Assembly (NCBI GenBank): GCA_000002445.1
Contig: CH464491.1
Location: 3,744,001-3,808,000 of the forward strand
Reading direction: 5' to 3'
DNA: 64,000 nt
DNA from: Trypanosoma brucei
Lineage: Eukaryota
A model generated the notes under the pieces. That model saw nothing but the letters and a program-made list of their open reading frames with translations. It made no database searches and was not told the origin of the DNA. The position numbers were made by a program, and so were the translations under genes. Below are positions 2,761-59,434 of the stretch, one piece after another. The first letter of the stretch is position 1. Each line of letters starts with the position of its first letter.

Positions 2761-2781
2761 TGATTTTTTTTTCTTTATAAG
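2761..2781 (+). promoter_or_regulatory. Polypyrimidine tract + AG: candidate trans-splice acceptor signal for SmG
   Basis: tgattttttttttctttataag lies about 35 nt upstream of ATG 2815. This is the trypanosomatid SL-addition signal architecture. Confidence 0.45.
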
Positions 2782-2814
2782 GGGATCAGAGGGGAATACG
2801 TTTTGGAATCAACT

Positions 2815-3750: not shown

Positions 3751-4314
3751 ATGACCGGTTTTGACACTGTCTGGATCCCTTTTGCGGTGGTTTATCTGTT
3801 GTATCAGATCCCACCAACAATGATGGAGGTATACTCGTACTATAGTCGTGGTGGTCTTGTAAGCATTGAGGATATTAAATTTGATGACACCTTTACTTGT
3901 CATCATCAGTGGCTTAAGGACAAGGATGTGTATTTCAAGAGATTTTGTGACAGACCAACAAGTGAGGCAGGGAAAGCATTCTTCTCTTGGTTGGATTGGA
4001 GTGCCGAAGCATACGATCGTTCCATCTACGTTCTTCGGAGGAACCATGCTCGTCGCGACGGCGAGGTGTCGTTTTTGAAGCGGTACATTTACGGCCCTTT
4101 TGTTTTCAACTGGTCGAAGAAACAGTGGCTGCGAGGTGATGACAGTTGCGGGATGCGCATGCCCGCTTGGGGTGTCGGTGGTGAGGAGCGCGCCCGCGCT
4201 GAATTTGCCGCCGCAAAGGAAAAGGGGTTTGACAAGAACTGGCACTATCAGATCATGCGTAAGATACGCCGCGAACAGGCGCTGAGGACAGCAAAGGAGG
4301 TGCAGGCGCAATAG
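3751..4314 (+). CDS. Hypothetical protein (187 aa), Trp/aromatic-rich N-terminal hydrophobic segment, basic helical C-terminus; no family recognised
   Basis: Clean ATG ORF on the same strand as the rest of the polycistron. It sits between two confident genes, with a plausible polypyrimidine tract and AG upstream. The overlapping antisense ORF 3733-4311(-) is rejected. Confidence 0.5.
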   Translation: MTGFDTVWIPFAVVYLLYQIPPTMMEVYSYYSRGGLVSIEDIKFDDTFTCHHQWLKDKDVYFKRFCDRPTSEAGKAFFSWLDWSAEAYDRSIYVLRRNHARRDGEVSFLKRYIYGPFVFNWSKKQWLRGDDSCGMRMPAWGVGGEERARAEFAAAKEKGFDKNWHYQIMRKIRREQALRTAKEVQAQ

Positions 4315-4920
4315 TAAACATTGTGTGAGTATTGCTTCGTGTCACATTTGCTGTTGTGTAACGGGTGACAGATCTATGGTTCATTAGTTTTTTTTCCGTT
4401 TTGGTTCCTTTTATTGTTCAGGCACACGTGTTTGTGTGCAGGTTTGTTGTGGGTACCAAATCGCGGAGCTAAGTGAGCGCGCTTGGCTTGGGAGCCGCTA
4501 TTTATTGTTTTTGTTATCGGTTACGGTATATTTGTTATTAGCAGTAGACGTACGCGAGCGGGGTGGGAAGAAAAACGTTGGATAGCAAATTTTTTAATGA
4601 GATTGTTTTCTCATGCGTGAGTCATTATATGTTTTGTTGTTGGACACCCTTTGGTGTGTTGTTGTTCTTGAGTGCTTTTCTTGATCTCTTCTCAACATCC
4701 GCTTGCTTGGCATTTTACCCATTTTCTTCCTAACAAATACTCAACCTTGATATGGGGTATACGTGTTGATGGATACGAATATCAAAAAGAAGTTTTTTTT
4801 CTTTCAACACTGGGTGATCTACGCTTCAAGCACGATAATTTTGTTCGGGAAAGGAGTAACGTAGGATCGAGTGAGCCCTTTAAAGGTTTGGGAAGGGAAA
4901 AGGGATAAATAGGTGTCTAA

Positions 4921-4947
4921 CAGTTTCCACCCTGTCCTCTTTTTCAA
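4921..4947 (+). promoter_or_regulatory. Polypyrimidine tract + AG: candidate trans-splice acceptor for the HECT ligase gene
   Basis: cagtttccaccctgtcctctttttcaag lies about 175 nt upstream of ATG 5121. Confidence 0.35.
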
Positions 4948-5120
4948 GGCGAAAACTTGTTGACGGTGCAGGGGAGGGATTGCCATTGTTGTTAGTGGTA
5001 TTTGCTCTTTGTTGCCATATTATAAAGGGTTCACCGAACACAGAGAAAATACATAATAACAGCTGAAAAAAAGAAAAAAAAGTGTACATATAATTAAATA
5101 TACGTTGGGGTGCTCGTTTA

Positions 5121-8100
5121 ATGGAGCATATTCTCAGCCGCCTTATGATGGATGCCGAAGGTGGTGGCTTGCAACGCCAGGCTATGAAGGACGTCATCAC
5201 CGCCAGAGAGAATTTGGCAAGCAACGATGAGGCCCGTGTAACAACAGGTTTGCTTGAGCTTTGTGATTTGCTCAACATGGCAACACCTATAACTATAGGA
5301 TCTATCCGCCCGAATGTGTTTGTTCCTCTTGTGGTGAACTGCATGAAGAAGGATAACATCGACCTTGTTATCCTCGCGGCACGGGCACTTACGTATATGG
5401 TAGACGCTATATCTTCTACGGTATTTGTTCTAGTCTCGGAGGGAGGAATCGACGTACTGCTTCAACATTTTCAAGAGGTGAAGGATATCGAGCTCTCTGA
5501 ACAGTGTTTAACATGTGTGGAGAAGATAACACAGAACTCTGTCTGTGCCGCTACGGTGCTGCAGAGTATGGGTGTGCCAGCTCTTTTGATGTACGTGGAT
5601 TTCTTTAATGCAGCTTCCCAGCGAAAAGCATGGACGAGCGTTGCAGCGATGTGCAGACGCGTTAACGAGTCGAATTTTGGTTGCGTAGAATGTTCACTTC
5701 AAGATATTAGTGCCCGAATTGATCATGATGATGCCAAAATATCAGAGAAAGCCATCACTTGCTTGTATCGTATCATATCGGGGGTTGGTAGTAACCCGGA
5801 ACTTGTGGCACGTGCATTTGGTGACAGTTGTAATCCACTTATCTCTGTCCTTAGCAGACAGGATTTGTCAGAGACAACTTTCACAACGGCACTATCGCTC
5901 ATTGCCTGTGCCATTGATTGCAGCACGGAAGCAGCTCGCCGAACTCTGGAATCTGGGATAGTGGAGTACATGTTTACACTGATCGCCAGTTCCTCCGAAC
6001 AGCAGCAGCGCCAAGATTTGGCCGGGTTCGCGGGTCGTACGGACGGGGTGTCGCGCGCCTCCGCTGCCAGGGAACCGTCAGCCCAACGGGAATCAGTGGA
6101 GACTGTCCCTCAACGAGATAGGCGACTTTCTGTTGAACAGACCAAAGCACTGTGTCTGGCTCTTACCGCTCTGCTGCCGAAGCTTAACAAGGGTTATCTT
6201 GTCCACGGTGACGCCCTTAACAAACTTATCGCAGAAGGACATGGTGAATCCCACCGACACGCCGGTGCTTCATCCTCGGAGGCAGATGAGGGTATGGGAG
6301 GTGATGATGATGAGGACGGGGACGGGGACATGGATGATGATGATGATGAGGAGGAGGAGGAGGAGTGTACTCACGAGGAAATTCTCTCACGGGTATCAGA
6401 ACGGGGTATTCTACTTGAAAATAACGAGAAGTACCGCACATGCCGCCTCAGGCACATGTGTGACGGTTGCGGTAAGTCGTGTATACCCACCAGCTGGTTT
6501 CGCTGTAATAAGTGCAGGGATTACGATTTGTGTGGGCGGTGCCTTCTTATGAACTGGGATAGCCACAGCCCAGACGGAGAGACCCATTCCTTCTGCGACA
6601 TGCTTGTCTTTTTCCCAAAGGTGAGTGATTCAGTAACTCCTGAAGAGGGCAAAGAGTCGAACAACAGTGACTTGACTGCCGAGCGCGAGAGGCTTTATGA
6701 AAGCAACCCACACCTTCTTGCCCTCATCCTTGGCGGTATCCCAACAGTTGTGGCACTGTTCAATGAATCTGAGGCACATCTCGTTCGGAATCATTGCTTG
6801 GCCTTTATTGACCGTGCTGTTGTTCTCGCGACGCCTGAACAATTGGCGGGGATCAAAGGACTCTCGGAGGCTGCTCTGTGCGAGATGATCGTGACGGCGA
6901 TGGTGGATAGCAGCCTCATCCTTAATGTACAGGTCATGTACCTCTGTCGTATGCTGCTGGAGAAGCTTCCCAAAGTGTACTTGCCTTGTTTTGTCCATGA
7001 GGGCGTCACGAATTCTCTAGTGAAGATACAGGAGCAAAATAAGTCGTTCGTGCATTGTAGTGAAGAGCCGACACCCGTTAAAGAACCCCCTTCCTCTGAG
7101 CGCTTCAACTCAGTTTCCGGATGGCGCGAACTGCTAGCAACGGAGGCGGAGGAAATGCTAGGTATGTTCACTTCCCTCAGTGACGACACAAGGATCCTTC
7201 GGTTAAAGGAGGTTGACCGGCTTTTGCGGGGGGGCAAGCTAAAGGAGGCATTTGACTCTCTCCGCGTTGCCCTCCTTGACGAAACTACCGCATTCGAACT
7301 GTCAGCGACTGATGTATTGCACAGTTTAGTGGAGGCTTTGAAGTCTGTGGATGATGTCAAGGCCATAGTGGCACTTCTCAAAACGTTGGCAAAACAGGAA
7401 CCAAACACCACCTCGACTCTGACACGATTTGTTCGGCTTCTTCAAACTGCGCTTTCACACCTTGATCAGTTCCAGTTACCCAATTTTGGCGCTGTGAACA
7501 CCATACAAACACAGATACCCCTTCGGCTCGTCCCACACGTAGCAGGTCACGCACCGAAACCGAAGGCATCCACTCCTCCAGCAAAAGGCAACGCCTCGAA
7601 ACGTGTGGCTTCCGGTTCCACTGCTGGTCCTCCGGTCCCCACACGGGAGGTGGTTACCAGGCGCCCCACAGGCACATCAGCGGCTCGTCCAGCCGCAGTC
7701 ACTAGCAGGAACAAGAAGGACCAATCGGCGTCACCGGCATCTACGAATACGGGTGGTGGAAAAAGTTCAGTGGAGAACCGAGAGGTTAGAGTTAGCGTAG
7801 AACCATTGACAAATCTGGAGGCACTAATGGGATTTGTAGGCTCAAACGTACTTTCCGGGGGTGGGGAATTTATTGGTAGCCCCGTCACTGGTGGTGGCCG
7901 TCGGCGCAACGATGACGACGAGGTGGAAGAGGTGTTGCCCGAGTTAGCCAACGGCGTGGACCCTGAGGGATTACCTAAAAAGAAAAAACCCGTGCAAGAG
8001 AAGTCGTGTAGGCCTGTTTACATGCGTTGCGGGAAATATGTGTTGCCGCCTTCATTGACGATTCTTCAGCTCCTACAGCGCTACCACACTCCATCACAGT

Positions 8101-41992: not shown

Positions 41993-44503
41993 ATGGGATC
42001 CCTATTCAAGCTACGTGACCATTGGTACACTAGGTATGGCGGGGAAGAGTTTAGTCACACACAGCCACTCGCTGTGGGAAATATTGACAATCATGCAAGT
42101 GGGGAGAACAAAATAATTATAGGTTCTTTTTCGGGGTTGCTACGCATTATGCAACCAATGAAGAAGGGTGCGGCCTTACCGGAAGATACACTTCTCGAAA
42201 AGGACCTTGGTGAACCAATCCTGCAGCTAGCATGTCGTCCCTTAGAGTTGAACTCTAAAGGAGTTGCAGCAAACCTATTAGCTGTGCTATTCCCCAAACG
42301 TCTCGCCCTTTTCCGTGTTAGGTGTGGGAAAACTAGGAGTGGAGAAAAGGAAAATTCTGGTGCCTTTAACGCGTCATGTAGCATTCACCTATGTTATAAA
42401 ACGTCCTTGGAGGGACATGCATACAATTTCACGTGTGGTGCTTTTGGTGGTGCTAAGCATGAGATGGTGTGCGTGCAGTCGATGGACGGCCAACTCACTA
42501 TCGTTGATCGCAACCTAGTTTTACTGCGGTTCCTTCTTCCAGAGAAGGAATTTCTTTTGCCGGGGTGTTTAACATACTGCCGTAATAGAGATTGCTTCCT
42601 CACGTGCAACTCCTCAATGAAGGTTCTGTGCTACAAATTTAGTGCGCTTACCAACGACCAGCCACAGACGGAAACTCAGGGCGGCGCTCTCAAGAGCATT
42701 AAGTCTGAGGAACACAAGGAAACTTTGACACCCTTGTGGGCGTTTCCGTTAGGTGAGGATGCAATTGCCATTGAAGTGTGTCGTTTTTCCCGTGGACTTG
42801 CAGAAAACGACGCTGACATCGTTATATTATGTCAGTACGCTTTGTTCGTTCTTAAGCTTAACGGCCAGATGCGGTATTCGAAGCGCCTGGACGTGGCGGG
42901 ATTGTGCCTTACCTCCTACGACGTACCTGCCGCCGGGGCGTCCAATGTCCTCGTTGGAACCGCAACTGGTTCGGTTTTAGTGTTTTCTGATACGTCACTC
43001 GAGTGGAGTGCAAAAATGACTGAGGGTGTTCCCTTGTGCATGGAAGTGACACAACTGATGGAGATGCAAGGGCTTGTTGTATCACTGAACACGGAAGGAA
43101 CTGTTGCAGTCAATTATCTTGGCACGGATCCGGAGGAGGAGCCAATTCAACCACTGCAGAGCAAAGAGGTAGATTACGCTGAAGCTGTTGATGAACTTCG
43201 ACGGGTGCAGCAAGCCATCAAGCGAATAACAAACGCGGAAGATGGTACGAGCAAGACGCGGGAGGCAGAAAAGGTATTGGAGGTGACTTGGGATGTTATT
43301 GGAGATGAAGAGAATTCTCCTGCAGAGGTCGTGGTGCTTCTAGTAATTCGAAATTGCAGCAAAGACATGACGGCGTTCCGAGTCACAGCACTTCTGCAGG
43401 TTGTAATACCTATTGAAGTGGATGCTCATAAACACACCATAGAGAGCATCACACCGGGTGGCAGTGCCCGCATTACAGTGCGATTCAGCACACCAAGCAG
43501 TCTAAATTATGTCATTCCCTCTTCCCTTGACGCACGAGTTGTGATCCTGTACACATGTGGCCGCACCACCGGGTGTAGTGTAGGTACCACTATACATCTT
43601 CCCTTTACCCTTGTGGCCCAGCCGATACCTTATGTGGATGCTTCAAATTTTGTGTTACAGTTTGACACAAACAAATCTGAACCCCCATCACTCATAGACG
43701 TCTTCACCGATTTTGCGCAAAGCGAGCACATATCGTCCAACTTGCTAGCAATACAGTACGTAAACGGTGCGCACGCAGTCCTTTTCGTATCGAGGAATGC
43801 TGGGAGGTTTCGATTGCAAGCCTCAACAATGGAGGCGTTGTGGCTCTTTACCTTCGAGTTACATGCAAGGTTACTTACTTTTTATGATTCGGAGGTGCAG
43901 TTCACCTTTCCAAATCCTATCCCATTGGATGATTACTTTCGGGTGATTGATGAGCACGTTGAGACGAGGAAGCAGCTCAACACGGCGAAGAATACACTTG
44001 CGCGGGCTTCTCAAATGTTTTTCGCAGTGCAAAAGCGTCTCTTGGCTCTTTTTCGCACTAACAGTTCAACATCTGTTGCACTAACAAGTACTCTGTTGGG
44101 GGCTTGCTACGGTAACCTTCAGCGGTGCACAGACACCGTTTGTCGACTTATCTTGCAAAGGAAAAAGGCGGCAGCATCACTGTGCTGCTGCTCAAGACTC
44201 GTTGTAATGGATTTGCTAATAAAGTGCCAAAAGACGCTGACTGATCCCGAGGATATTCATCTCATCGAGTCGATCTTTACATGTTCCATTGACGCTGATG
44301 ACGAATTAGACTGGGAAGAGAGCACCGATGCAGCGCTGGGTCGGCTTGTCGTAGGTAATAAAGGAAGCTGTGACTTCATACCGGCAGATCTTTCCGCCAA
44401 CGATGGTATGTTTGTAGAACCCAACGTCGAGCGCTTGAGGAAGCGGATTACTGAGTTTTTCGACAAACTTCTCAGTGGAGCATTGACCTCCTTCCTGAAG
44501 TGA
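41993..44503 (+). CDS. BBS9: BBSome subunit BBS9 (PTHB1)
   Basis: 836 aa. The N-terminus aligns with human BBS9: MGSLFKLRDHWYTRYGGEEFSHTQPLAVGNIDNHASGENKIIIGSFSGLLRIMQP versus MSLFKARDWWSTILGDKEEFDQGCLCLANVDNSGNGQDKIIVGSFMGYLRIFSP. Confidence 0.8.
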   Translation: MGSLFKLRDHWYTRYGGEEFSHTQPLAVGNIDNHASGENKIIIGSFSGLLRIMQPMKKGAALPEDTLLEKDLGEPILQLACRPLELNSKGVAANLLAVLFPKRLALFRVRCGKTRSGEKENSGAFNASCSIHLCYKTSLEGHAYNFTCGAFGGAKHEMVCVQSMDGQLTIVDRNLVLLRFLLPEKEFLLPGCLTYCRNRDCFLTCNSSMKVLCYKFSALTNDQPQTETQGGALKSIKSEEHKETLTPLWAFPLGEDAIAIEVCRFSRGLAENDADIVILCQYALFVLKLNGQMRYSKRLDVAGLCLTSYDVPAAGASNVLVGTATGSVLVFSDTSLEWSAKMTEGVPLCMEVTQLMEMQGLVVSLNTEGTVAVNYLGTDPEEEPIQPLQSKEVDYAEAVDELRRVQQAIKRITNAEDGTSKTREAEKVLEVTWDVIGDEENSPAEVVVLLVIRNCSKDMTAFRVTALLQVVIPIEVDAHKHTIESITPGGSARITVRFSTPSSLNYVIPSSLDARVVILYTCGRTTGCSVGTTIHLPFTLVAQPIPYVDASNFVLQFDTNKSEPPSLIDVFTDFAQSEHISSNLLAIQYVNGAHAVLFVSRNAGRFRLQASTMEALWLFTFELHARLLTFYDSEVQFTFPNPIPLDDYFRVIDEHVETRKQLNTAKNTLARASQMFFAVQKRLLALFRTNSSTSVALTSTLLGACYGNLQRCTDTVCRLILQRKKAAASLCCCSRLVVMDLLIKCQKTLTDPEDIHLIESIFTCSIDADDELDWEESTDAALGRLVVGNKGSCDFIPADLSANDGMFVEPNVERLRKRITEFFDKLLSGALTSFLK

Positions 44504-44850
44504 GTATAAATGACGCTACCACCTGCGTTGGATCTTTTTGCGAACATCCGACCCACGCGCGGACAAATATGCAAAGTTTGAAAAAAACAGAAAGAAACGG
44601 AGCCGACAATGCGTCGAGTGGCGATTTCACATTTTTGTTTTCCGTCTTGGTTTGCCGTCAGCTACTTTGGAGAATTTCTCTGTGCTAAATTGTTGTTACC
44701 ACTGTTTCATTTTCATTTTTTTCCTTTCCGACGGCTACAGCTTTGCCCCCTTTTCCCTTTCAATTTATCCTTTCCTGCTCCCCAAATCCCCTTGAGAGGA
44801 AGATCTTCAGTGTCTCCTTGTATTACTGGGAAGGGGGCGAAGACGAAGAA

Positions 44851-46179
44851 ATGGCTAGTGTTTTACCATCCGCTCCACCGGGATCGGCTGTTATTTCCTC
44901 TAAGAGGAGGTCTCGAAGGGGCGCTCAAAGGTTGGCAGGCAAGCAACCCGATGTCAAACATATTGGTGTAAGTCAAACGGTTATTGACAGACTCGATTTG
45001 ATGAGTTTACACCAGGAGCTCCTGGAAACATTTTCCACATTTGACGTGCAAGGGGGGATGCGGCGGAAGGGTCAAAGGGGATCCTTTGCCTCTAAATTCA
45101 ACCATGTACCCATAGCAAAAGGAATCGTGAACAGAACTAATTCTTGTTTTATGAACGCAATGCTCCAGGCAATAATTTTTACCCCGCCCCTTGCTCAATT
45201 GATCATTTCTGCTTCCGACAGTGAGTTGTGCCCAACACTCTCTGCGTTAGGCAAGTGGATGTTGAGTTATTGGACGAAACCAGCTAATCAATCTATTAGC
45301 CCCCCTCAACTCTCCGTTGCTCAGTCTGCAAATGAGGGAGTCGCCTCGACGTACTTGCTGTTGGCCAGAATGAACGGCTATGCGCAAGAAGATGCGCTTG
45401 AGTTTTTACAGCATCTTCTCGATACGATAAATACTGAGCTGTGCTCTTTGGAAAAACATTACTGTAATCGTGCTGCGATTGATAGTGGCGATGAAAAAGG
45501 ATGGACATTTGTGCATGGGCGTGAGCGCCGATCGTTGCGCGAGGAGAAAACAGGACCCCACTCGATTCTACTCGACGCTGTGTTTGGTGGTACGATACAA
45601 AGCCACTTGAAGGGAAAGAGCCGTGTCCGAAGCCACGCCTCCGTTGTTTTAGATCGCTTCTTTGTGTTACAGGTTGATGTTGGTTTTAATGCTGAGTGCA
45701 CGTTGGAGGAGGCCCTCGAACGCACACTCCAGACAGAGAAAGTGTACGATGATTCACGTGCGAAAGACTTGGTAAAGACAATGAAACTGCACCAGCTGCC
45801 GCTAGTGCTCTTCGCCCAACTACGGAGATGGGCCGTGACAGCTGAGGGTGAACTTGTAAAACTCGATAACATTGTACGCTTTGGAAAGACGCTGGTGTTG
45901 CCCAAGTCTATATGCTCGGATGAAACGTTGAGCGGGACGGCAAGAACGTATCAACTTGTTGCGTTTGTGGCTCACCGTGGCTCCGCGACGGGTTGTGGCC
46001 ATTATGTGACGTATATTGTGAACGCGTCTTTACCTGAGAACGCGCGTTCTAATTCATTGGTTACCGGGGGAGAAGAAGTGCTTACACTCTGCAATGACGT
46101 GCGGATTTCACATGTCACCATGCGGGAGGCGATTGAAGGCGAAGCGGCGTACTTGTTAGTGTACCAGCGCAAGACATGA
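44851..46179 (+). CDS. Ubiquitin carboxyl-terminal hydrolase (USP/UBP family deubiquitinase)
   Basis: The track ORF starts at TTG 44743; the first ATG is 44851 (MASVLPS). The Cys box is NRTNSCFMNAMLQAIIFTPPL (Cys codon 45145-45147). The His box is YQLVAFVAHRGSATGCGHYVTYIV. Confidence 0.85.
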   Translation: MASVLPSAPPGSAVISSKRRSRRGAQRLAGKQPDVKHIGVSQTVIDRLDLMSLHQELLETFSTFDVQGGMRRKGQRGSFASKFNHVPIAKGIVNRTNSCFMNAMLQAIIFTPPLAQLIISASDSELCPTLSALGKWMLSYWTKPANQSISPPQLSVAQSANEGVASTYLLLARMNGYAQEDALEFLQHLLDTINTELCSLEKHYCNRAAIDSGDEKGWTFVHGRERRSLREEKTGPHSILLDAVFGGTIQSHLKGKSRVRSHASVVLDRFFVLQVDVGFNAECTLEEALERTLQTEKVYDDSRAKDLVKTMKLHQLPLVLFAQLRRWAVTAEGELVKLDNIVRFGKTLVLPKSICSDETLSGTARTYQLVAFVAHRGSATGCGHYVTYIVNASLPENARSNSLVTGGEEVLTLCNDVRISHVTMREAIEGEAAYLLVYQRKT

Positions 46180-46621: not shown

Positions 46622-47194
46622 ATGTTCTACAAAATGAAATTGGAGAGGAATATAAAAGTGGAGCCTCATCTTCTAGAGCGGACCTTACACCGCCATCTTG
46701 AAGAGTACCTTCGTAAGGCGGTTGAGGGGACGCCGCTGCACCTATCGCTAGGAAATGCGTTGCGAAGTGGTTTGGCCCGCACAAATCAGAATTCTTCGGC
46801 GGTCATTATTGCCGTCCTCGACATATTAAACACAAGTTCGCTGGAAGGAAGGGTGTTGGATGACGGGAGCGTGTCCTTCTTCGTGAAGTACGAGGGGCTT
46901 GTGTTTAAACTTCACCGTGGTGAGGTAATTGACGTGATAGTCAGTAGTGTGGAGCGTGAGGGCTGGTGGGGTGACGTAATGGGCGTCGGGCGCATGTACA
47001 TTAGTCGTGGACAAATGGGCAATGAGTGGGTTTACGAAAGTGATGGTATGAGGGGTATTTGGATCACAAAAGATGGCGCACGGTCCGTAAAGGAGGGGGA
47101 AATTGTTCGCGTACGTGTGGTTGCGGAGACACCACAGTCGGAAGGCGTACTGGCAGTTGGTTCGATGGTAGGGAATTATTTAGGACCACTGTAG
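46622..47194 (+). CDS. RPB7: DNA-directed RNA polymerase subunit of the Rpb7/E family (most likely RPB7; RPC25 not excluded)
   Basis: 190 aa. The N-terminal RNP-like and S1-like regions align with eukaryotic Rpb7: MFYKMKLERNIKVEPHLL...YLRKAVEGT, and SVSFFVKYEGLVFKLHRGEVIDVIVSSVEREGWWGDV~[35 protein letters not shown]. Its position relative to CRM1 fits my unverified recollection of T. brucei chr 11 synteny. Confidence 0.7.
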   Translation: MFYKMKLERNIKVEPHLLERTLHRHLEEYLRKAVEGTPLHLSLGNALRSGLARTNQNSSAVIIAVLDILNTSSLEGRVLDDGSVSFFVKYEGLVFKLHRGEVIDVIVSSVEREGWWGDVMGVGRMYISRGQMGNEWVYESDGMRGIWITKDGARSVKEGEIVRVRVVAETPQSEGVLAVGSMVGNYLGPL

Positions 47195-47759: not shown

Positions 47760-48528
47760 AAGAAGCGTAGAACAGACATTGTTCTGCGGGCGATGCCGCG
47801 ATGGGGAAGATGATTGTGTCAAATGTGCCACTTTAGTCTTTATCGTTCCTGCGCATATTGTTCAAAGTTTTTCTTAATCTTTTTTTTCTACTCGGCGCGG
47901 ACGAAATTATAGCATATATATATATACATATTGCCCTGTTAACGCGTTTACGTTAGTTTTTCTGAGCTTCCTGTTCACTAACAGTGCAAGAACCATCAAG
48001 CGGCACTTAAAGTTTTCTCTGCGTGCTCTTCTTCTGTTGTATACACATATGTGTGGCTTGTGATAATGATTTAGTACGTTACATAGAGTTAGGAGCTGTG
48101 ATAGTTGGTTGAGAGTGGTTGTGTACCTGTTTTGAGCAGCGTGCGTGAGAAGCACCCGTTAGCTGCTATACTGGTTTCACAACAGGCATCAAAACGCAAC
48201 GCGCAAACTGAATAAGGTGAGTTGAGGGAATAACAGGAGATATTCAGTTTGTTGAGAGCTGCCGATTTTGAACCTCACCAAGGTAAAATAATAATAGTGG
48301 ATCCGCATCTTCCCTCTTGAGGTAGTGGTAGTGAGCGAGCGTTAGCAATACGGTCGTGTCACTCTTTGCAAGGGAAAAGGTGGGGACGTGTAACCAACCT
48401 TGTCCTTTACACACGACTCCGTGTTTTGTTACCTCACAACCACGTTTCATTCACCGCTGAGACGTGACCACTGAAGTCACATATACTCTTGCTGATAGGT
48501 GAGAAAGGTGATTGTGGGTTTCTTGGTA

Positions 48529-49809
48529 ATGTCAAGCGGTTGCGCACCACATTACCGAACTAATTTATGTCCACCATTACGCGAACTGAAAAGCAACGGT
48601 GAAGAAGTCGATACTTATGCAAATATGTGGCAGTACCATTGTGAGCGTCGCGGGGAAATCCAGGTTGGTGAAACGATTGGCTACGGCGGTGACCGTGGTT
48701 CTATGGTCTACAGCGTCGTGCGTTGTTGTTCTCCAGGACTAAGCAGCGTGAACTGCCAACTTGTTCTTAAAGTGTACTCTACGGAGATCAACGAGAATGA
48801 ATTTGAGTTTATTAAAATACTTTTGGGACTCGATGATCATCAGTCAGAGGATGCAGTTATGCGGAAAAGCATATGCCGGACACTGCCGTACTTGGTGTTG
48901 CCCATGGCGACCGTCCGTGTTGATGGAGTCGATCGTGGAATTCTCATGGCGAAACGAGAAAGGAACCTAAAGGAGTTACTCATCTATGCATCAAAGCGAC
49001 ACGGGAGCAGAGGTAATGCCATAATAAATCGCTGTGATGACACTATGGGTAACCAAGAAAGTAGGGAGGGTGTGAACTACCAGCGAACTGCGTTTCGCTG
49101 GAAGAAGGACTTTTTACCAATTCTACAGATGGAGGTCATCATCGCCATCTCGTTTCAACTCGTACTTGCAACCGCTTGTTTGAATGAGGAGCTTCCTCAC
49201 ACTGTGAGCGGCATTTCCTACAGTGGTTTCGCGCACAATGATATTCATCTTGAAAACATACTAGTGGAGGAAAAGGAAGGTCGTGTTGCTCTCTGTGATT
49301 TTGAACTCGTAAGTTCAAGCCCAGGAAGCAGTAGTGACAAAGGACCGCGACTTCAGCCACCACAAAGGAGACTTCCGCCTCCGTGCAGGCGTTCTCCACG
49401 TGACTTCTTCTGCCGGAAAGCAGACTCATGGGGCATTGGTCTTGTAATCATTTCACTTCTTACGGGCATTGATCCACTTTTTGATAGCACTGTTGTGTTG
49501 GATGATTTCGGTGAGGGCCCAATACTTAGGAGTCATGAATTCTACAAGGGCAACCTTCAGGTGCTTGACTGGGAGCAGAATATAAAACCGCACGTGGAGA
49601 AGCTACTTATTCACGATGATCCAACTGGCAGACGACTGAAGGAGGCGCAACCCCTTCTACATTTGTGCTCTAAATGCCTCGTGAATAACCCTCGAGCAGA
49701 CCCGTGTATTCCAATCGAGTTACTTTCCGATCCTGTCTTCAGTTGTTTCGTCAGCAAAGAGAAGGTGTCTGAAAATATCTTGATCTCGTGGATAAAGCAG
49801 ATTGGTTAA
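48529..49809 (+). CDS. Protein kinase-like protein, predicted pseudokinase (degenerate catalytic loop and DFG)
   Basis: The track ORF starts at GTG 48499; the first ATG is 48529. A glycine-rich loop is present (GETIGYGGDRGSMVYSV), followed by a beta-3 candidate Lys (LVLKVYSTE). The catalytic loop is HNDIHLENILV, so HRD has become HND and the loop Lys is replaced by His. The activation-loop anchor is DFE rather than DFG. There is a proline/Arg-rich insert (PQRRLPPPCRRSPRDFF). Confidence 0.65.
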   Translation: MSSGCAPHYRTNLCPPLRELKSNGEEVDTYANMWQYHCERRGEIQVGETIGYGGDRGSMVYSVVRCCSPGLSSVNCQLVLKVYSTEINENEFEFIKILLGLDDHQSEDAVMRKSICRTLPYLVLPMATVRVDGVDRGILMAKRERNLKELLIYASKRHGSRGNAIINRCDDTMGNQESREGVNYQRTAFRWKKDFLPILQMEVIIAISFQLVLATACLNEELPHTVSGISYSGFAHNDIHLENILVEEKEGRVALCDFELVSSSPGSSSDKGPRLQPPQRRLPPPCRRSPRDFFCRKADSWGIGLVIISLLTGIDPLFDSTVVLDDFGEGPILRSHEFYKGNLQVLDWEQNIKPHVEKLLIHDDPTGRRLKEAQPLLHLCSKCLVNNPRADPCIPIELLSDPVFSCFVSKEKVSENILISWIKQIG

Positions 49810-51541: not shown

Positions 51542-52324
51542 ATGTTACGGCATTTGTTCCGATGTACTGCGGCTTGGGCCCCAAAGCGGTCGGCCACTCG
51601 AGAGCAGCGGCTTAAGGAGCGTGTGGCAGCCAGAATGGAACTTGAGGCACAGGTTAAATCACGAGTGGCATGTTACCCCCATCGTTCACTAACACGTCCG
51701 GCACTGCGATTAGAAAGACATCAGGTGAATACTCCACTCTTTCATTCGCAACTCCTTAACCTCAACAAGATGGCAACTGACCTTCAGTGTATTTCGTTTA
51801 GCGCACCGAAAGGCCACTGGGATGCTGCCATTGTTCTTATAAAGGGTCATCCAAATGAGGCAAATTTCGAGGTTTGGGTGAACCCCACCGTACCCGGTTA
51901 TGATGATCGTCACTCTATAGCACCAATGTATGGCATGTGGGAAAATTGCATCTCATGCGGAGCCTGTACGGCGTGGGTCATTCGACCACAATCCATCACC
52001 TGCAGTGGCTTGGACGAGTACGGGAACGAGAAAACTGAAGTACTTGATGGCATGCGTGCGCGCTGCCTCATGCATGAGTTGGATCACTTGAGTGGGAGGA
52101 CTATCCTTGATCAGGCACAGGGACCAGAGTTCATCGTAAGTGGAATTGCAATGGGTCAGAGGGATCTGTGGCCCCCAAATTTCCCTTCTGCAGAAGCGTA
52201 TATGACTTCCCCCCATCAGTTCTTTGATTATGTCAAAAACGGACCAATTATCCCACCAGGAATGGAGTGGTTTTATGCGCAAAGTATGAATCAGCAGTTT
52301 GAGGACGCTCGCCTGAGCCACTAA
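51542..52324 (+). CDS. PDF: Peptide deformylase (mitochondrial-type PDF)
   Basis: 260 aa. The N-terminus MLRHLFRCTAAWAPKRSATREQRLKER looks like a presequence. PDF motif 3 (HEXXH) is HELDHLSG at nt 52074-52088. The motif 2 metal-ligand Cys lies in MWENCISCG. Motif 1 is divergent (GHWDAAIVL, with no Gln). Confidence 0.85.
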   Translation: MLRHLFRCTAAWAPKRSATREQRLKERVAARMELEAQVKSRVACYPHRSLTRPALRLERHQVNTPLFHSQLLNLNKMATDLQCISFSAPKGHWDAAIVLIKGHPNEANFEVWVNPTVPGYDDRHSIAPMYGMWENCISCGACTAWVIRPQSITCSGLDEYGNEKTEVLDGMRARCLMHELDHLSGRTILDQAQGPEFIVSGIAMGQRDLWPPNFPSAEAYMTSPHQFFDYVKNGPIIPPGMEWFYAQSMNQQFEDARLSH

Positions 52325-52689: not shown

Positions 52690-54360
52690 ATGCCGGTTAC
52701 GACACACTTTTCTAGCATTGGCGTTAAGCAGTCTGAAGTCATCGAGACTGCTACAACATTGGGATGGACAAATGATCATCAAGCGCAGGATTATCTCCAG
52801 AAACTGTTGATCATCGGTCGGCCTATCCTTAGAGCACACAACTGGAAGATACACCGCTTGAAAGAATTTTACCCGCGTAGCGCGCGGCTGCTGGGGCAAA
52901 ATTTTAATAGAGGGGAAGAAGTGTGTGTTAGATTTCGTGTACCCAAGGAGAAGAACACATTTTTCCCATTTCATGAGGTGGTTTGTACTTTTTTGCATGA
53001 GCTTGCCCACTGCAAGTACTCCAAGCACGACCGGCACTTTTGGGAACTGTACACAGAGCTTTCAGTGGAGTGTTGCAGATTAGATCTAAATGCTTCGCTA
53101 GAGAGGGAAGCTGCTGCCCCACCAGATCGTCGTCATACAGGCAGTGGTAGGCGTCTTGGCGGGAGCAGAATAGTTCCACTTCCTCGCGAGCCAGAGGCGA
53201 TGCGGCGCATTCTTTCTGAGGCTGCGGAGAGGCGCCGGCAATCGAGTGAAAATGGTCAGTGTTATGGATGTGCACACGACAAAACGGGAGTAGGGAGTGA
53301 GTTGAATGACGGTTTGTGGACTTGTGATAACTGCGATGGCGTCATTGATGCTCTGCGTGGAAAGTGTGAGTTCTGTGTGGAGGTGGGCGACTCAACCGAA
53401 CAAGTTGAGGAGTGGAGTTGTAAACGGTGTTCTTTTCATAATCACTGTGCTCTTGTGCAGTGTGAGGCGTGCGGTCGCTTCAAGTCAGGACGTACAGCTG
53501 ACGGAACGAACACTGTTCATACCGTGAAAGCGTTGGCAGCGTCGTCCGACCACTTGCTCTTCACCATGACTTTGGGCCGAGTAGCTGATGCGTTAGCTCC
53601 TATCCTACAGGAAATGCGGTGGAGTGTGGCATGTCTTGAGGAATTCGCGCCTCCATTGAAGCGTGTGATGTCAAGATCTAGTTTCAAGAATAGCAACGAG
53701 TGCGACACACTGAGCATTCGCCTCCGCTCACCGAATAATCCCCACGAGCCTTTGACATTTACCTGTGTGCTGGCGCATGCACTGCATCAGTTGGCGCATC
53801 TGACAGAGAAGAACCATGGCGCAAACTTTGTTCACACGTGGATAGCTATGATTCACCGTTTTCTCACTGAAACAAAGGCGTTTAGTGACGATTTCATAAG
53901 TAGTCAAGAGCAAGAAGACCTTCTCTGTTTGGCAATGGAGTTGGAATTACTTCTTAATGGATTAAGTGGGAGAGATACTGCGCTTTGTGACGATTTGTTA
54001 GACAATGTTCCTCATCTGCAGCGACTTTTTGAGAACTGTGCCACCTTTGTTAAACGTGAGCGCCTTTTTACCGTTGCTACAACCCGTGAGGCCGGTGTGG
54101 TAGGACACAGTAAGCACTTGGAACTGTGGCAGTGCAGAAGATGTAGCGTTAACAACAATGGTGGTTTCATCATATTCTGTGAAGTGTGTGGCGCGCCCCG
54201 CCAGCTTTCAGTGCTACTTCGTACATCTCGCACTGTTGCCGTTCGTGCTGCTAGTAACGAAACGGTTATTGACATTTCCGATGATGACGGTGATGATGGT
54301 TCCGCGACGTCAGCAGGAGAGGCAACGATTTCCCCCGGTGTCGTCTTCATAATTGATTAG
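52690..54360 (+). CDS. WLM (Wss1-like) zinc metalloprotease with RanBP2-type zinc fingers; second, degenerate WLM-like module downstream
   Basis: 556 aa. The WLM core carries an HExxH...H signature, HEVVCTFLHELAHCKYSKHDRHFWELY (HELAH at nt 52996-53010). The RanBP2 fingers are WSCKRCSFHNHCALVQCEACG (nt ~53411-53480) and WQCRRCSVNNNGGFIIFCEVCG (nt ~54121-54200). A further C4 candidate is WTCDNCDGVIDALRGKCEFC. The second module, LAHALHQLAH...HTWIAMIHRF, lacks the catalytic Glu. Confidence 0.75.
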   Translation: MPVTTHFSSIGVKQSEVIETATTLGWTNDHQAQDYLQKLLIIGRPILRAHNWKIHRLKEFYPRSARLLGQNFNRGEEVCVRFRVPKEKNTFFPFHEVVCTFLHELAHCKYSKHDRHFWELYTELSVECCRLDLNASLEREAAAPPDRRHTGSGRRLGGSRIVPLPREPEAMRRILSEAAERRRQSSENGQCYGCAHDKTGVGSELNDGLWTCDNCDGVIDALRGKCEFCVEVGDSTEQVEEWSCKRCSFHNHCALVQCEACGRFKSGRTADGTNTVHTVKALAASSDHLLFTMTLGRVADALAPILQEMRWSVACLEEFAPPLKRVMSRSSFKNSNECDTLSIRLRSPNNPHEPLTFTCVLAHALHQLAHLTEKNHGANFVHTWIAMIHRFLTETKAFSDDFISSQEQEDLLCLAMELELLLNGLSGRDTALCDDLLDNVPHLQRLFENCATFVKRERLFTVATTREAGVVGHSKHLELWQCRRCSVNNNGGFIIFCEVCGAPRQLSVLLRTSRTVAVRAASNETVIDISDDDGDDGSATSAGEATISPGVVFIID

Positions 54361-54891: not shown

Positions 54892-56595
54892 ATGGATACC
54901 GCGTACGCGACCCTCTTCAGCAAGTACAGAGAGGCTGCCGTATTAGCCTGCGATGAAATCGGCATTGAGCCGAAGGATTTGTTGTATAGGGCCAAGAAGT
55001 CTTTCAAACAGTCAGACAACGACAGCTCCAGTGCGATCCTCGTGCGGTACACGCTAAATGAGCGCACGAGACAGAACCGAATTCGGCAAGTGCTCGTTAT
55101 TAGGAACAAACTTGTTCTTCAGGGCAACGTATCTGACAGGTGGAAGAAACGATGCCAACAGTACCCTGACGCACCGCGAGCACCACGGATACCGAAGGCA
55201 GTGTTAGAGAAGTTGTTAGCACAGTTGGAAAAGGAGCGAGAAGATAAGAGCGATGAGGTAGGCAGTGCTCACCCTTCATCGCCAGCGTTTTCTCTTACGG
55301 GGGAAATACATAAAGGGCTTAGGTTGAGAAGATCATTGGGGAGGAGTGGTGGTGCATCTTTTGTTCGTTCACCTTCGGGAACCGAAACTTTCCGCTCACC
55401 GATGGCGGGGTCGCCTATGCACATGAGTCGAACCTCACCAACAGCAGCTGCTGCTCGAGGTAGGAGGGGTAGTAAAGTACTATTTGGGAGAGAACTCGAG
55501 GTGAAGGACCTTGAGGTACGCCGTGGGGGTCACTCTGCCACAGCTCCCATCATAAAATACTCTGAGGAGTGTCGTTCCAGCCCTTCTCGCAGCAGGCAGT
55601 CGGGGAGGAAAGCGCGTAAACATGGACCTGTCCCCCCATCTGACCCTCCACTATTTCCTCCGATTCCGCGGCACGGGCGCAGTGATGAAACGCTCGCTCA
55701 AGAGGCGGAAGATCTCGAGAGGTATCGACACACTCTTTCACTGTACGCAGTCGACAGCGCCTCATTACTAGAAAAATTCATGGAACAAACTGCCAAAAGG
55801 GGACTGAACGGCAGTAATACCGAGTCGAATGCTACGGCGCAAGATTCGGCACGCTCAAAGAGTGCTGCGCAAGATGGAGAAGTGGAGGCAACCAAGAAAG
55901 GGAAGAGGAGCGATATCGTGTGTTTGCCACAGAGAACAGCGCAAGAACGGAGGACTGCGGTTTTTATGCGCTTAGCGAGAATGCAATTGGCCCGTAACAT
56001 GGATGAATTCAGGAAGATGAAAATTTACCTCGGTGAAATGGATGAAATTGGACAAGCAGGTACCATCGTAGCATCTATCAGAGCTCGCGCCAACATAAAT
56101 AAACCTCCCACACATGAAGAATACATGGAAACACTGCGGGACAAAGAGCGCCAGCGTGAACTTCGACTCCAGCGTGAGAAGAAAGAGTTCCAGCGGACTT
56201 TGAAACTGCACGAAAAGAAGGAGCGCAGTGCGAAGAAAGTTCTTGAAAAGATAAAGAGCAAGTGGACAAATGTACGTTTGGAGGCTCTGACCACCAAGCG
56301 TGACATTGCTCTAACAAACCGCAAACGCGCGGACAGACGACTAAAAATGAAACAAGATCATTATTGTGTGCGTCTTTCCAAGAAGGAAATGGAGGCTGAA
56401 GAACGTCGCAGAAAACTATTCCGAACCATCTCCATGAAGCGGTATGAACATGACCAGGAGGAACTCTTCCGCAAAAACATAAAGGGGAAAATAATGGAGA
56501 TGGATAGACTGAAAAACTGGCGTAGTGAATCCCTTGCGCTGCCAGATGTATCACCACACTCAGAAAAGAAAAAAACAATACTTTGTCCCTTGTAA
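54892..56595 (+). CDS. Hypothetical basic coiled-coil protein (567 aa)
   Basis: ATG ORF on the + strand. The C-terminal half is strongly K/R/E-rich with heptad character (KERQRELRLQREKKEFQRTLKLHEKKERSAKKVLEKIKSKW). No catalytic motif is recognised. Confidence 0.55.
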   Translation: MDTAYATLFSKYREAAVLACDEIGIEPKDLLYRAKKSFKQSDNDSSSAILVRYTLNERTRQNRIRQVLVIRNKLVLQGNVSDRWKKRCQQYPDAPRAPRIPKAVLEKLLAQLEKEREDKSDEVGSAHPSSPAFSLTGEIHKGLRLRRSLGRSGGASFVRSPSGTETFRSPMAGSPMHMSRTSPTAAAARGRRGSKVLFGRELEVKDLEVRRGGHSATAPIIKYSEECRSSPSRSRQSGRKARKHGPVPPSDPPLFPPIPRHGRSDETLAQEAEDLERYRHTLSLYAVDSASLLEKFMEQTAKRGLNGSNTESNATAQDSARSKSAAQDGEVEATKKGKRSDIVCLPQRTAQERRTAVFMRLARMQLARNMDEFRKMKIYLGEMDEIGQAGTIVASIRARANINKPPTHEEYMETLRDKERQRELRLQREKKEFQRTLKLHEKKERSAKKVLEKIKSKWTNVRLEALTTKRDIALTNRKRADRRLKMKQDHYCVRLSKKEMEAEERRRKLFRTISMKRYEHDQEELFRKNIKGKIMEMDRLKNWRSESLALPDVSPHSEKKKTILCPL

Positions 56596-57643
56596 TTACT
56601 ATAAAGGATGTAAATGTACAATAAAAATAACTACCTCTAGTTCACTTATGTTTGGCTTTTTGCTTTTATTACGGTTTAATTTCCTCTGTTGAGTAAGCGG
56701 CGAAAAGGAGATCATTGAGCGGTGAGAAATGTATCATATGTTTCTTTAATTTCTGTTTTTCGTGTTCGTGCATTCTTTTTTTTAAAAAAAAGAGTGCGGT
56801 AAAAGAAAATTTTAAAATGTCGTTGAAATGAGTGTATGGGTACGAGACTGCTTGACCTACCCTTTTCCGCGAGTGGCGGAAGTTTCGTTACCGTTGAATC
56901 TTTTTTTTTTGTTTGCTCTCCCTTCTCTTTTATACTTTTTACTCAGCATATAATGTGCATCTGTACGTTTGGTAATCTTTCCGTCTCTTCCCTCAGATAT
57001 TTTTTTGAGACGACGTGTGAGCTTCTGTTTATTTACCCAAAATTCTCAAAAAGCCGCCGCATGTAGTTGCAGCTGCTGCCTCTTTCTGTGTATTTTCGTT
57101 TATTCGTGTTCTTTTTTTTTTCAACTATCGGTTAGAATTTTTTTTTTTACTCTCCCCTCACCCATCAAAAATAACTTCCCCCCCCTTTCTTGATGAAGTT
57201 TGTTAACATTCCCTCGCATATCGTCGCTGTTCTGTGTGTTATCTGAGCTATAGAACTCGCATTACAATCTTACTTGAATATATAAGCATACATTTTCTCA
57301 TTGGTGACCATTCTATTTTGCTATGTTATTTCACAACCGAATGGCTGTGTTGGTTTTTCTTCTAATTTACTCCTTGTAACGTATCAGGAGTAACCAAAAT
57401 AAAGCGTAAGGTAACTAAAATTAAACGAAAGGGACAAGGTACCACTCCGTTTCACCGCACACACATTCTTGCGCGATCTTGAACGAATTAAATTACACCC
57501 ATTCTTATTAACAGATAGTTATAGTCTATATCCGTGTTTTGTTAATTATTTTTTTTTGTTTTTGGGTTGAAAGTCTCGCTTGAACTTTCACTCTATATTT
57601 GCCTGGTTATTTGGTGTTTAGGCTCGTTGCCTTTCTGAAGCTG

Positions 57644-59434
57644 ATGGAAAATTTGGTGGACGTTGGAAAATCCAATGGAACAACCAATGGCGCTGCTACA
57701 CGCCGTGGTAAAACCCAGTGTACTGAATGGAGGGGGAAATGCAAACGACAAAAGGTAAACAAACAACTGAGTGGTGGTGCATCCATTGGTTTCCCACCAC
57801 GGTTAACTAACGAACATATTGTCCCCCCCTCCAACGCGGCAAAAGGCGGTAAGGAACCGAATTCCACTGCCTTAACAGAGTCCGCAAATCACGGTTCTGT
57901 GCCGAAGGACGTTCCGTGTTTCCAGCAGAGTAATGATAGTCTCAGTTGTGGTTTGGCGTCTTCTCGTATAACTTTTGTCTTACCATGTTCCGCATCAGAC
58001 GAAAATAAAGTCGTAACTCCTGTGTACCTGCATATCTATGAGCTAAGTCATGGAATTCTGCATCGGCACAGCAAAAAAGTAACGGGGAAATACGTTAAGG
58101 GTGTTTATCATAGTGCTGTGGTGTGCTACGGAATGGAGTTTTTCTTTGAAGGTGGCATAACAGTTACTTGTGCTGGTCGAACGCGCTTCGGTGAGAAGTT
58201 TGACAAGGTCGAAATTGGGCACACCAATAAACCGCTTAGCTCTTTCCTGGATTGGGCAGGTCAACGTTCGAGGAGCACATACATTTTCCATTCTTATCAT
58301 CCAACGGAGCACAATTGTCACACGTTTACCTCGGACGCAATCAGTTTTCTCATGGGACCTGAAGCATCTTTGCCATCGTACCTAACGGAAACCATCGACA
58401 CGATTGTGAAAACACCCGTAGGGACCGGTGTGGTGGAGCTGCTGGTGCATTTTTTGGGAGGTATGAAATATGTGGCTGCTGAAAATCAGAGAAGGCGAAT
58501 GAGTGAGCGGAAGGCCTGCCTGACGAGGGCGAGGAGGTGCATTGCCAATAATGTCATTAATACAACTCCTCCAGCGAGTGTTACACTGTTTCGTGTGAGT
58601 GACCCCTCAAGTTGTCATCGCACCCTTGCTGCGGTAGAACCCTATGGAAGGCGGTTGTTGGAGCATAAGGCCATAGAGCCACCAGCGATGAATTTCCTGC
58701 GATGTGTGCAAGGTTTATGCGCGGGAGTTGAGTTCATTGATCCAGATTATGTTACTGAATACGTCAACCTTGCAACATATGCGCTCATACACACAACACC
58801 AACACTCAGGGGGCCCATACTGAACAGCCTGCGGGTTGCTGTTCTTCACAAGATGGTTTCATGTACCTGTGCTTTTCATCCTCTCCTTCTCTGTGCTTTA
58901 TCTGAGACTGTCCGTAACTTTATGAACCTGACGGCGGAGGGCAGGCTTGCGTTACTGCGTCTTTTGTGCAATATGGGTGGTAGCATCCATGGGGCTGTGG
59001 CACTGAGTTCTGCTGAGTACTCACAAATGTGGGTGGCGGCCGCTGGGCAAGCCGTGATGGATTATAGAAACCCTGCTATCGTTTATACGGGAGCCGCACT
59101 AATTGCCAACCTTGCTGTGGCATTTGTTCTAACCGAAAATTTTGTTTCAAAAACTGTGGAATACCCCCATATTTCTGACCAGTGTCAAAACCTCATTACT
59201 GTGACACTTTTTTACCTTGGGTCTTGGCCGAGGGAACGTGTCCCGGAGGCGGCAACAACTTTGATGTTGTTTGCCCTTTTTATTTTGCTTTCATCTTCTT
59301 TTGATGCTTCTAGAGCGGCCAAACTTCATCCTTTCCAACTGAATTTTGACTGCTTGATCAGGGAGGTACGGACGTTGGAGAGCTCAACCCTCATCCGCAT
59401 GCTGCAGGACATTTTAAGGTGTCCCCACGCATAG
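57644..59434 (+). CDS. PPPDE/DeSI-family cysteine isopeptidase (DUF862) with ~400-aa C-terminal alpha-helical (ARM/PUL-like) extension
   Basis: The track ORF starts at TTG 57599; the first ATG is 57644. The PPPDE core is VYLHIYELSHG...YHSAVVCYGMEFFFEGG (His codon 58108-58110) ... HPTEHNCHTFTSDAISFL (Cys codon 58316-58318). The C-terminal 400 aa is helical and repeat-like, with no transmembrane segment. Confidence 0.75.
   Translation: MENLVDVGKSNGTTNGAATRRGKTQCTEWRGKCKRQKVNKQLSGGASIGFPPRLTNEHIVPPSNAAKGGKEPNSTALTESANHGSVPKDVPCFQQSNDSLSCGLASSRITFVLPCSASDENKVVTPVYLHIYELSHGILHRHSKKVTGKYVKGVYHSAVVCYGMEFFFEGGITVTCAGRTRFGEKFDKVEIGHTNKPLSSFLDWAGQRSRSTYIFHSYHPTEHNCHTFTSDAISFLMGPEASLPSYLTETIDTIVKTPVGTGVVELLVHFLGGMKYVAAENQRRRMSERKACLTRARRCIANNVINTTPPASVTLFRVSDPSSCHRTLAAVEPYGRRLLEHKAIEPPAMNFLRCVQGLCAGVEFIDPDYVTEYVNLATYALIHTTPTLRGPILNSLRVAVLHKMVSCTCAFHPLLLCALSETVRNFMNLTAEGRLALLRLLCNMGGSIHGAVALSSAEYSQMWVAAAGQAVMDYRNPAIVYTGAALIANLAVAFVLTENFVSKTVEYPHISDQCQNLITVTLFYLGSWPRERVPEAATTLMLFALFILLSSSFDASRAAKLHPFQLNFDCLIREVRTLESSTLIRMLQDILRCPHA

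Follow-up and report, generated by a model that had tools for sequence, protein, structure and literature searches.

Proteases of the Wss1/SPRTN type are dangerous, and our understanding of how they are controlled is incomplete. Among the characterised members is Wss1 of yeast, for which a DNA-dependent cleavage of crosslinked proteins has been established (PMC7782752). Yeast Wss1 is a protein of 269 amino acids (aa) with a single WLM domain and without zinc fingers, and the domain is followed by an SHP box, a VCP-interacting motif (VIM) and two C-terminal SUMO-interaction motifs (SIMs), in the order WLM, SHP, VIM, SIM1 and SIM2 (PMC4559962). Roles have been assigned to His115, Glu116, His119 and His125 at its zinc site, and the E116Q exchange is the standard catalytically inactive mutant (PMC5557861). 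[quoted passage not shown] WLM proteases as such are well known, and so is the fusion of a WLM domain with RanBP2-type fingers, a widespread architecture that is found, for example, in fungal and choanoflagellate proteins (e.g. Penicillium, P0081 cluster) with a single active WLM domain. Here we describe a gene of Trypanosoma brucei, annotated so far as WLM domain-containing, which lies at positions 52690..54360 on the forward strand of a 64,000-nucleotide stretch of contig CH464491.1 (hereafter the window). Its product combines an active-type WLM module with a second WLM module that is predicted to be catalytically dead.

The complete coding sequence comprises 556 aa plus the stop codon (52690..54360, +), and the N-terminus taken from the listing of open reading frames (ORFs) aligns with all orthologues. 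The original prediction had placed a 556-aa ORF and its motifs at these sites, which a direct reading of the sequence confirmed. The product is 99% identical to the T. brucei protein 'ORF556' (Q9GU92) and can, by sequence, be equated with it as the Wss1-family (WLM) protein of this species. Orthologues at 37-43% identity were recovered from T. congolense, T. vivax, T. cruzi, T. rangeli, T. conorhini, T. theileri and T. melophagium, and a further one was found in T. grayi. Invariance is reported below for an alignment of eight Trypanosoma species (A1), and motif counts refer to ten Trypanosoma sequences.

Searched as a whole, the protein matches the Pfam WLM profile (PF08325) with E=6.9e-47 and 160 bits (cut-off 26) in two stretches, the better of which covers aa 26-165. 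Module 1, the predicted active metalloprotease domain (aa 18-132; 52741..53085, +), retrieves yeast Wss1 (5xbn, E=1.1e-13) and Schizosaccharomyces pombe Wss1 (E=5e-10) from the sequences of the Protein Data Bank (PDB) with phmmer. It contains the zinc and catalytic HExxHx5H motif HELAHCKYSKH (aa 103-113; 52996..53028, +), in which H103, E104, H107 and H113 are invariant in A1 and which aligns residue by residue with His115, Glu116, His119 and His125 of the yeast enzyme. Module 1 shares the WLM fold and the HExxHx5H site of yeast Wss1 (5xbn; E116Q mutant 5xbv), so that the intact HExxH...H signature claimed for the first module stands, and its mean pairwise identity across the eight species is 0.71. 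No profile match to the SprT-like protease domain was obtained in the Pfam scans, where a Zn_ribbon_SprT match at 0.025 in one orthologue was the sole trace, and the protein belongs to the WLM branch and not to the SPRTN branch.

The second module (aa 276-398; 53515..53883, +) had been proposed to be WLM-like, and several lines of comparison bear this out. When aa 277-475 are scanned alone, they match Pfam WLM with E=7.5e-12 and 46.2 bits (cut-off 26), and BLASTP aligns the two modules of the T. brucei protein at 28% identity (E=1e-9). When a profile of module 2 from eight sequences is run against the PDB, yeast Wss1 alone gives a strong match. The best entry is that of the E116Q mutant (5xbv, E=6.6e-12), because module 2 naturally reads HQLAH and thus carries the change that was introduced into the yeast protein in the laboratory. 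The AlphaFold model of aa 270-465 (pLDDT 80.7, pTM 0.82) superimposes on the Wss1 crystal structure 5xbn in Foldseek with a TM score of 0.86 and an rmsd of 2.2 Å over 126 columns (E=1.9e-8), and the four Wss1 entries are the only matches at E<=0.001. Neither of the outcomes named beforehand as speaking against the original prediction was observed: profile searches put both modules in WLM, and the agreement with the yeast crystal structure shows that the second is not an unrelated helical region.

The module 2 motif HQLAHLTEKNH (aa 366-376) is read directly from the DNA at 53785..53817 (+). The catalytic Glu had been described as missing. It is indeed absent, but it is not simply lost: Gln367 takes its place and the three histidines H366, H370 and H376 are retained. 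The codon of Gln367, CAG at 53788-53790, is one base away from GAG. H366, Q367, L368, A369, H370, H376, F380 and W384 are invariant in A1, and HQLAHx5H occurs in all ten Trypanosoma sequences. Module 2 keeps its three metal ligands and has lost only the general base. Since Glu to Gln is the standard inactivating change, it should not be able to hydrolyse a substrate by the normal mechanism, and sequence and model together identify it as a true member of the WLM fold and, by prediction, as an inactive, zinc-retaining pseudoprotease. It is conceivable that module 2 is partly active despite Gln367, for instance through Glu373 (HLxERxH) or by other chemistry, which would give the protein two active sites of different specificity. 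The invariance of the three metal ligands would fit such a view, as would the Glu that stands three residues ahead of the third His in most species (e.g. LTEKNH, VERHH). This Glu is absent in T. melophagium (HLVVRNH), however, and the same exchange serves to inactivate Wss1 experimentally (PMC5557861; entries 5xbv and 5ln5), which makes residual activity highly improbable. To our knowledge, there is no precedent for an active HQxxH gluzincin.

The conservation of the dead module bears on whether it still matters to the protein. Across the eight species the mean pairwise identity of module 2 is 0.46, close to that of the zinc fingers (0.47-0.49) and above that of the linkers (0.32-0.34), which argues that module 2 is under constraint. 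A neutral relic of a duplication, which folds and has no function of its own in a protein that works like the single-WLM orthologues of Leishmania, would explain why module 2 evolves faster than module 1 (0.46 against 0.71), why the LLGxNxNxG active-site strand is not conserved in it and why a single WLM domain is evidently enough in other trypanosomatids. A dead site left to drift freely should hardly have preserved one and the same Gln and all three zinc ligands; F380 and W384 are invariant as well. Moreover, the module is kept in ten of ten Trypanosoma sequences, which span the salivarian and stercorarian lineages and that of the crocodilian T. grayi, and its fold is predicted with confidence. 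We therefore regard the relic explanation as unlikely; given an identity similar to that of the fingers and above that of the linkers, and the high model confidence, module 2 does not look like a decaying remnant.

The tandem arrangement seems to be confined to one genus. When 1.84 billion representative proteins were searched exhaustively with HMMER and a full-length profile, 2586 hits were obtained, among which only Trypanosoma proteins matched from end to end (at least 582 bits); the next hit fell to 262 bits, which it owed mostly to its WLM domain. Once the best 155 of the 2586 hits were parsed into domains, two modules with HQxxH were seen in Trypanosoma only. A word-index homologue search returned eight Trypanosoma proteins only, and with queries restricted to the WLM domain it returned unrelated short WLM proteins; the orthologues of the Leishmaniinae were recovered by the exhaustive HMMER search. 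The next-best proteins have a single WLM domain, to which most add a VIM, one or two fingers and/or a SIM tail, and named examples come from Leishmania martiniquensis (P0016), Leptomonas seymouri (P0022), Lotmaria passim (P0019 cluster) and Angomonas deanei (P0032). Their WLM domains share 46-53% identity with module 1, and members of the group share the VIM, one or two fingers and/or the acidic SIM tail with the Trypanosoma proteins, although not each sequence fits each pattern. Unlike the latter, they are without module 2, the helical extension that follows it and the third finger, and several carry a canonical FxGxGxRLGG SHP box. A published survey counted one WLM gene per Trypanosoma genome (PMC5976635). 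On the sequences compared, the combination of an active and a dead WLM domain appears in all sampled Trypanosoma and not in the Leishmania-group relatives examined.

That single-WLM genes are the counterparts of the T. brucei gene can be seen from the neighbourhoods of two of them, which between them share a peptide deformylase gene upstream and a further ORF and a PPPDE peptidase gene downstream. In the window, the peptide deformylase gene (51542..52324, +; Pfam E=1.3e-26) lies directly upstream of the WLM gene. Immediately downstream follows an ORF of 567 aa (ORF567; 54892..56595, +) without a Pfam match, the C-terminal third of which is rich in lysine, arginine and glutamate. Two genes downstream of the WLM gene lies the gene for a 611-aa protein (ORF611; 57599..59434, +), whose PPPDE/Peptidase_C97 domain (Pfam E=2.9e-20) places it among putative deSUMOylating or deubiquitinating peptidases. 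On one kinetoplastid contig (L001), the gene for a 402-aa WLM protein is adjoined by a homologue of ORF567 (1708..3408; end-to-end, 23% identity, E=3e-20) and by a PPPDE peptidase gene (3696..5633) whose product is 33% identical to that of ORF611 (E=1e-94), so that the order WLM, ORF567, PPPDE is common to this contig and the window. A second contig (L002) carries a kinase-like gene, peptide deformylase (4781..5548) and WLM (464 aa) in the same order as the window, and its kinase-like gene has the same relative position as the ORF at 48499..49809. Since their flanking genes match those of the window, these two WLM genes (P0012 and P0159) are positional orthologues with one WLM domain.

The origin of the tandem can be approached by comparing the two halves of the protein. 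The N-terminal half (aa 26-266) and the C-terminal half (aa 285-505) give one colinear HMM-HMM alignment (probability 98.5%, E=3.1e-15), which pairs module 1 with module 2 and finger 2 with finger 3 and therefore favours the duplication of a whole unit in the Trypanosoma lineage. The simplest history suggested by these sequences is an in-frame duplication of a WLM-linker-NZF unit in the Trypanosoma stem lineage, after which the second copy would have lost catalysis and the SHP/VIM segment. Where the linker with SHP box, VIM and finger 1 falls in this alignment, the second half has an acidic extension (aa 399-465; 53884..54084, +) for which AlphaFold predicts three or four helices with moderate to high confidence and which has no counterpart in module 1. 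Its net charge ranges from -8 to 0 across species. That of module 2 itself ranges from -3 to +2, and with this near-neutral charge and acidic helices behind it, module 2 is unlikely to be a DNA-binding module. Within the extension, aa 446-458 (about 54025..54063 in the window) form an invariant stretch around C450, K455, R456 and R458 with the consensus LFADCGTAVKRER. This stretch aligns with finger 1 (WICxRCGNVN) in the comparison of the halves with weak similarity, and its sequence may be the relic of a lost zinc finger.

Tandems of a live and a dead WLM domain do not seem to be unique to trypanosomes. Among the proteins from Logan/ENA assemblies, a metagenomic sequence of 335 aa (P0149) has a HELAH..H module, then a WLM module with HQLCH, in which Glu is likewise replaced by Gln, and a C-terminal NZF finger; of the zinc histidines, this second module lacks the third, while all three are still present in module 2 of Trypanosoma. 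Another one of 382 aa (P0028) has three WLM modules, the first of which is degenerate (HALCF). Unlike the T. brucei protein, neither sequence is kinetoplastid-like. Both seem to have arrived independently at a tandem of active and dead WLM modules, and on the basis of these two a dead WLM beside a live one may be a recurrent arrangement that evolved more than once.

More distant parallels are the active and inactive MPN+/MPN- metalloprotease pairs of the ubiquitin system (Rpn11-Rpn8, CSN5-CSN6) and the trypanosomatid prozymes (the AdoMetDC prozyme and the deoxyhypusine synthase paralogue), in which a dead paralogue that arose by duplication is kept beside its active twin. The partners in these pairs are separate polypeptides, their folds are unrelated and their activation as heterodimers has been demonstrated, whereas the trypanosome WLM copies are fused in one chain. 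It is a tentative idea, to which we give a minor share of belief, that module 2 is a fused prozyme, that is, a dead copy retained as an on/off switch that acts in cis on the active module, or as a means to present substrates to it through an intact but inert zinc site. The related suggestion of the original prediction, that the active-plus-dead tandem is a regulatory or substrate-binding adaptation, is plausible.

Between module 1 and module 2, the protein carries linear motifs and zinc fingers. Not noticed in the original prediction were a third finger, the motifs for VCP binding and SUMO interaction, and the confinement of the tandem to Trypanosoma. Two putative sites for the unfoldase Cdc48/VCP can be compared with published patterns, h(x)1-2[F/W](x)0-1GxGx2L for SHP and Rx5AAx2R for VIM (PMC5389986). 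The SHP-like box HTGSGRRLGG (aa 149-158; 53134..53163, +) is degenerate: GxGx2LG is kept, the aromatic residue of the consensus is absent, and R155, L156 and G157 are invariant in A1. The canonical FxGxGxRLGG stands at the same place in several single-WLM orthologues outside Trypanosoma. The decay of this region (aa 143-160; about 53116..53169) in every Trypanosoma sequence coincides with the gain of the dead WLM module. The VIM, MRRILSEAAERRRQ (aa 171-184; 53200..53241, +), follows the pattern R172-x5-A178A179-x2-R182, which was found by regular expression and alignment at the same position in eight of the ten Trypanosoma sequences; R172 and R182 are invariant in A1, and AlphaFold places a helix of low confidence at 168-187. 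By its sequence and its location between module 1 and the fingers, MRRILSEAAERRRQ fits a predicted VIM.

The original prediction had counted at least two RanBP2-type fingers. The two between the modules were recovered with family-level profile matches, and a third one, not listed then, lies behind module 2. All three fit the scaffold W-x-C-x2-C...C-x2-C, with a spacer of x(10) in fingers 1 and 2 and of 11 residues in finger 3, and their cysteines are invariant in A1. The first finger, RanBP2-type (aa 210-229; 53317..53376, +; C212, C215, C226, C229), matches the RanBP2-type finger of ZNF265 (1n0z, E=2.2e-4) when its profile is compared with the PDB; the T. brucei copy is the most divergent one and has lost N-x-N. 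Finger 2 (aa 242-261; 53413..53472, +; W242, C244, C247, F249, C258, C261) is of the NZF subtype, and its profile matches the NZF of TAB2/TAB3 (E=1.6e-6) and of Npl4 (E=0.005); TAB2 is also found with the single sequence (E=0.002). Finger 3 (aa 480-500; 54127..54189, +), again of the NZF subtype and with W480, C482, C485, C497 and C500 invariant, matches TAB2 (E=5e-6), Npl4 (E=4.6e-5) and HOIP (E=1.1e-4). Pfam zf-RanBP (PF00641) is matched in three of the eight orthologues (best E=8e-7). From these comparisons, the RanBP2-type assignment seems to hold at family level, and fingers 2 and 3 resemble the ubiquitin-binding type of TAB2 and Npl4.

The acidic C-terminus contains two SUMO-interaction-like motifs. 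The first consists of VIDI followed by SDDDGDDG (aa 526-537; 54265..54300, +), and all ten Trypanosoma sequences, like many single-WLM orthologues, have a hydrophobic core with an acidic run in the corresponding position. The second is VVFIID at the extreme C-terminus (aa 551-556; 54340..54357, +), where a hydrophobic run of beta type is present in eight of eight species. Both can be called SIM-like, being conserved as short linear patterns. The order of protease, SHP-like box, VIM and two C-terminal SIM-like motifs corresponds to that of yeast Wss1. Compared with the yeast protein, the trypanosome protein adds three RanBP2/NZF fingers, a dead WLM domain, which shares the fold of yeast Wss1, and an acidic helical extension, and its SHP box is off consensus.

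Taken together, we favour, with a probability of roughly 0.6, the reading that this protein is the Trypanosoma orthologue of Wss1, in which module 1 cuts in cooperation with VCP/Cdc48, VIM, NZF fingers and SIMs serve as docking sites, the whole unit has been duplicated and module 2 is a non-cutting partner. The comparisons show which domains are present and how they fold, that the motifs are conserved, that the tandem is restricted to one lineage and that synteny is kept, whereas every biochemical activity, the role in DNA repair and the job of module 2 are inferred. In keeping with the function of the family (PMC7782752, PMC4559962), the substrates would be proteins trapped on chromatin and marked with SUMO or ubiquitin, above all DNA-protein crosslinks, which the protease would degrade jointly with the unfoldase VCP/Cdc48. 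The catalytic centre would be module 1 (aa 18-132), the VIM helix and possibly also the weakened SHP box would dock VCP, fingers 2 and 3 would read ubiquitin chains and the acidic C-terminal motifs would read SUMO. In the duplicated copy, the change from Glu to Gln would have ended catalysis and the SHP/VIM segment would have been lost, with the WLM fold and three zinc ligands kept. Module 2 could then either hold a polypeptide or the C-termini of SUMO or ubiquitin in its inert zinc site, or pack against module 1 and exert intramolecular control.

Several observations weigh against parts of this reading. No experiments on this trypanosome protein were found in the literature searched, where it appears only in in-silico listings as a 'WLM DUB' (deubiquitinase). 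None of the ten Trypanosoma sequences fits the strict SHP consensus, and in T. theileri and T. melophagium both glycines of the GxG are gone, so that VCP binding may rest on the VIM alone or be weak. In the T. brucei protein, zf-RanBP stays below the Pfam threshold (E=3.9 and 0.11). The signature of ubiquitin-binding NZF fingers is T-F with a hydrophobic residue further on. Finger 2 reads C-S-F...CEAC, and for finger 3 T. brucei has C-S-V...CEVC where most species have C-S-F...CEMC, so that the ubiquitin-contact dipeptide is S-F or S-V and not T-F, with Ser in the place of Thr. The LLGxNxNxG strand, which lines the cleft of module 1, is not conserved in the equivalent segment of module 2, and this weakens the idea that module 2 holds substrates. 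The full-length AlphaFold model has a pTM of 0.49, at which contacts between the two modules are not readable. Finally, in a neighbour-joining analysis module 2 is at distances of 0.73-0.77 from fungal and choanoflagellate WLM domains and of 0.81-0.86 from kinetoplastid module 1, values that are near saturation. As module 2 is not closer to kinetoplastid module 1 in these saturated distances, internal duplication is unproven by sequence distance, and module 2 may instead have been acquired by fusion with a paralogue that was later lost. The colinear alignment of the two halves is the better evidence on the duplication of the unit.

A different function has also to be considered for the protein as a whole. 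It might act as a SUMO- or ubiquitin-chain protease or isopeptidase on soluble or organellar conjugates, and not primarily as a crosslink protease, with module 2 as a non-hydrolysing site for SUMO or ubiquitin C-termini. Trypanosome surveys class the protein among the deubiquitinases (PMC5976635, PMC9552668), and the binding of the SUMO C-terminus by the yeast zinc site and of poly-SUMO by the yeast SIMs (PMC4559962) points in the same direction. Three fingers and two SIM-like motifs would suit such a role, a basic DNA-binding module is not identifiable, module 2 is near neutral and the helical extension is acidic. Module 1 and its linker are basic, however (pI 8.5-9.1, up to 11), which is compatible with DNA binding there, and DNA-dependent crosslink proteolysis is what has been established for yeast Wss1 (PMC7782752). 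We consider it rather unlikely that conjugate processing is the primary task, and prefer the crosslink-directed Wss1 orthologue outlined above.

Some further genes of the window should be mentioned. All long ORFs listed between 42 and 64 kb are on the forward strand, and in this the window resembles a polycistronic unit of trypanosomatids. Further upstream of the WLM gene lie a homologue of PTHB1/BBS9 (41993..44503, +; E=2.9e-117), a UCH-type deubiquitinase gene (44743..46179), the gene for an Rpb7/Rpc25-like SHS2-domain protein (46622..47194, +) and the ORF at 48499..49809 (+), which is weakly protein-kinase-like (30.4 bits, just below the Pfam cut-off of 31.7). Together with the WLM and PPPDE genes, the UCH-type gene makes up three peptidases of the ubiquitin/SUMO system in 15 kb; their clustering in a polycistronic array is probably a coincidence.

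In the literature searched on trypanosome and kinetoplastid Wss1/WLM, DNA-protein crosslinks and ORF556, which did not fully cover evolutionary reviews of the family, we found no description of the dead second WLM domain with its zinc ligands, of its restriction to Trypanosoma or of the full set of Wss1-like motifs. Trypanosomes have a topoisomerase-rich kinetoplast and nuclear DNA metabolism, and protein-DNA adducts are expected to be frequent in them. We know of no human counterpart with a WLM domain; humans use SPRTN. A trypanosome survey has proposed the protein as a parasite-specific drug target (PMC5976635). We suggest that the present annotations, 'WLM domain-containing protein' or 'DUB', be replaced by 'Wss1 orthologue: active WLM + VIM + 3 RanBP2/NZF fingers + inactive WLM + SIMs'. 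Should module 2 turn out to be a fused prozyme, the regulation by dead paralogues that is known from trypanosomatids would extend to genome-maintenance proteolysis, and the Wss1/SPRTN class would gain its first described pairing of an active with an inactive module. A natural WLM protease with a built-in inactive twin lends itself to the question of what keeps a WLM domain in check or guides it to its targets.

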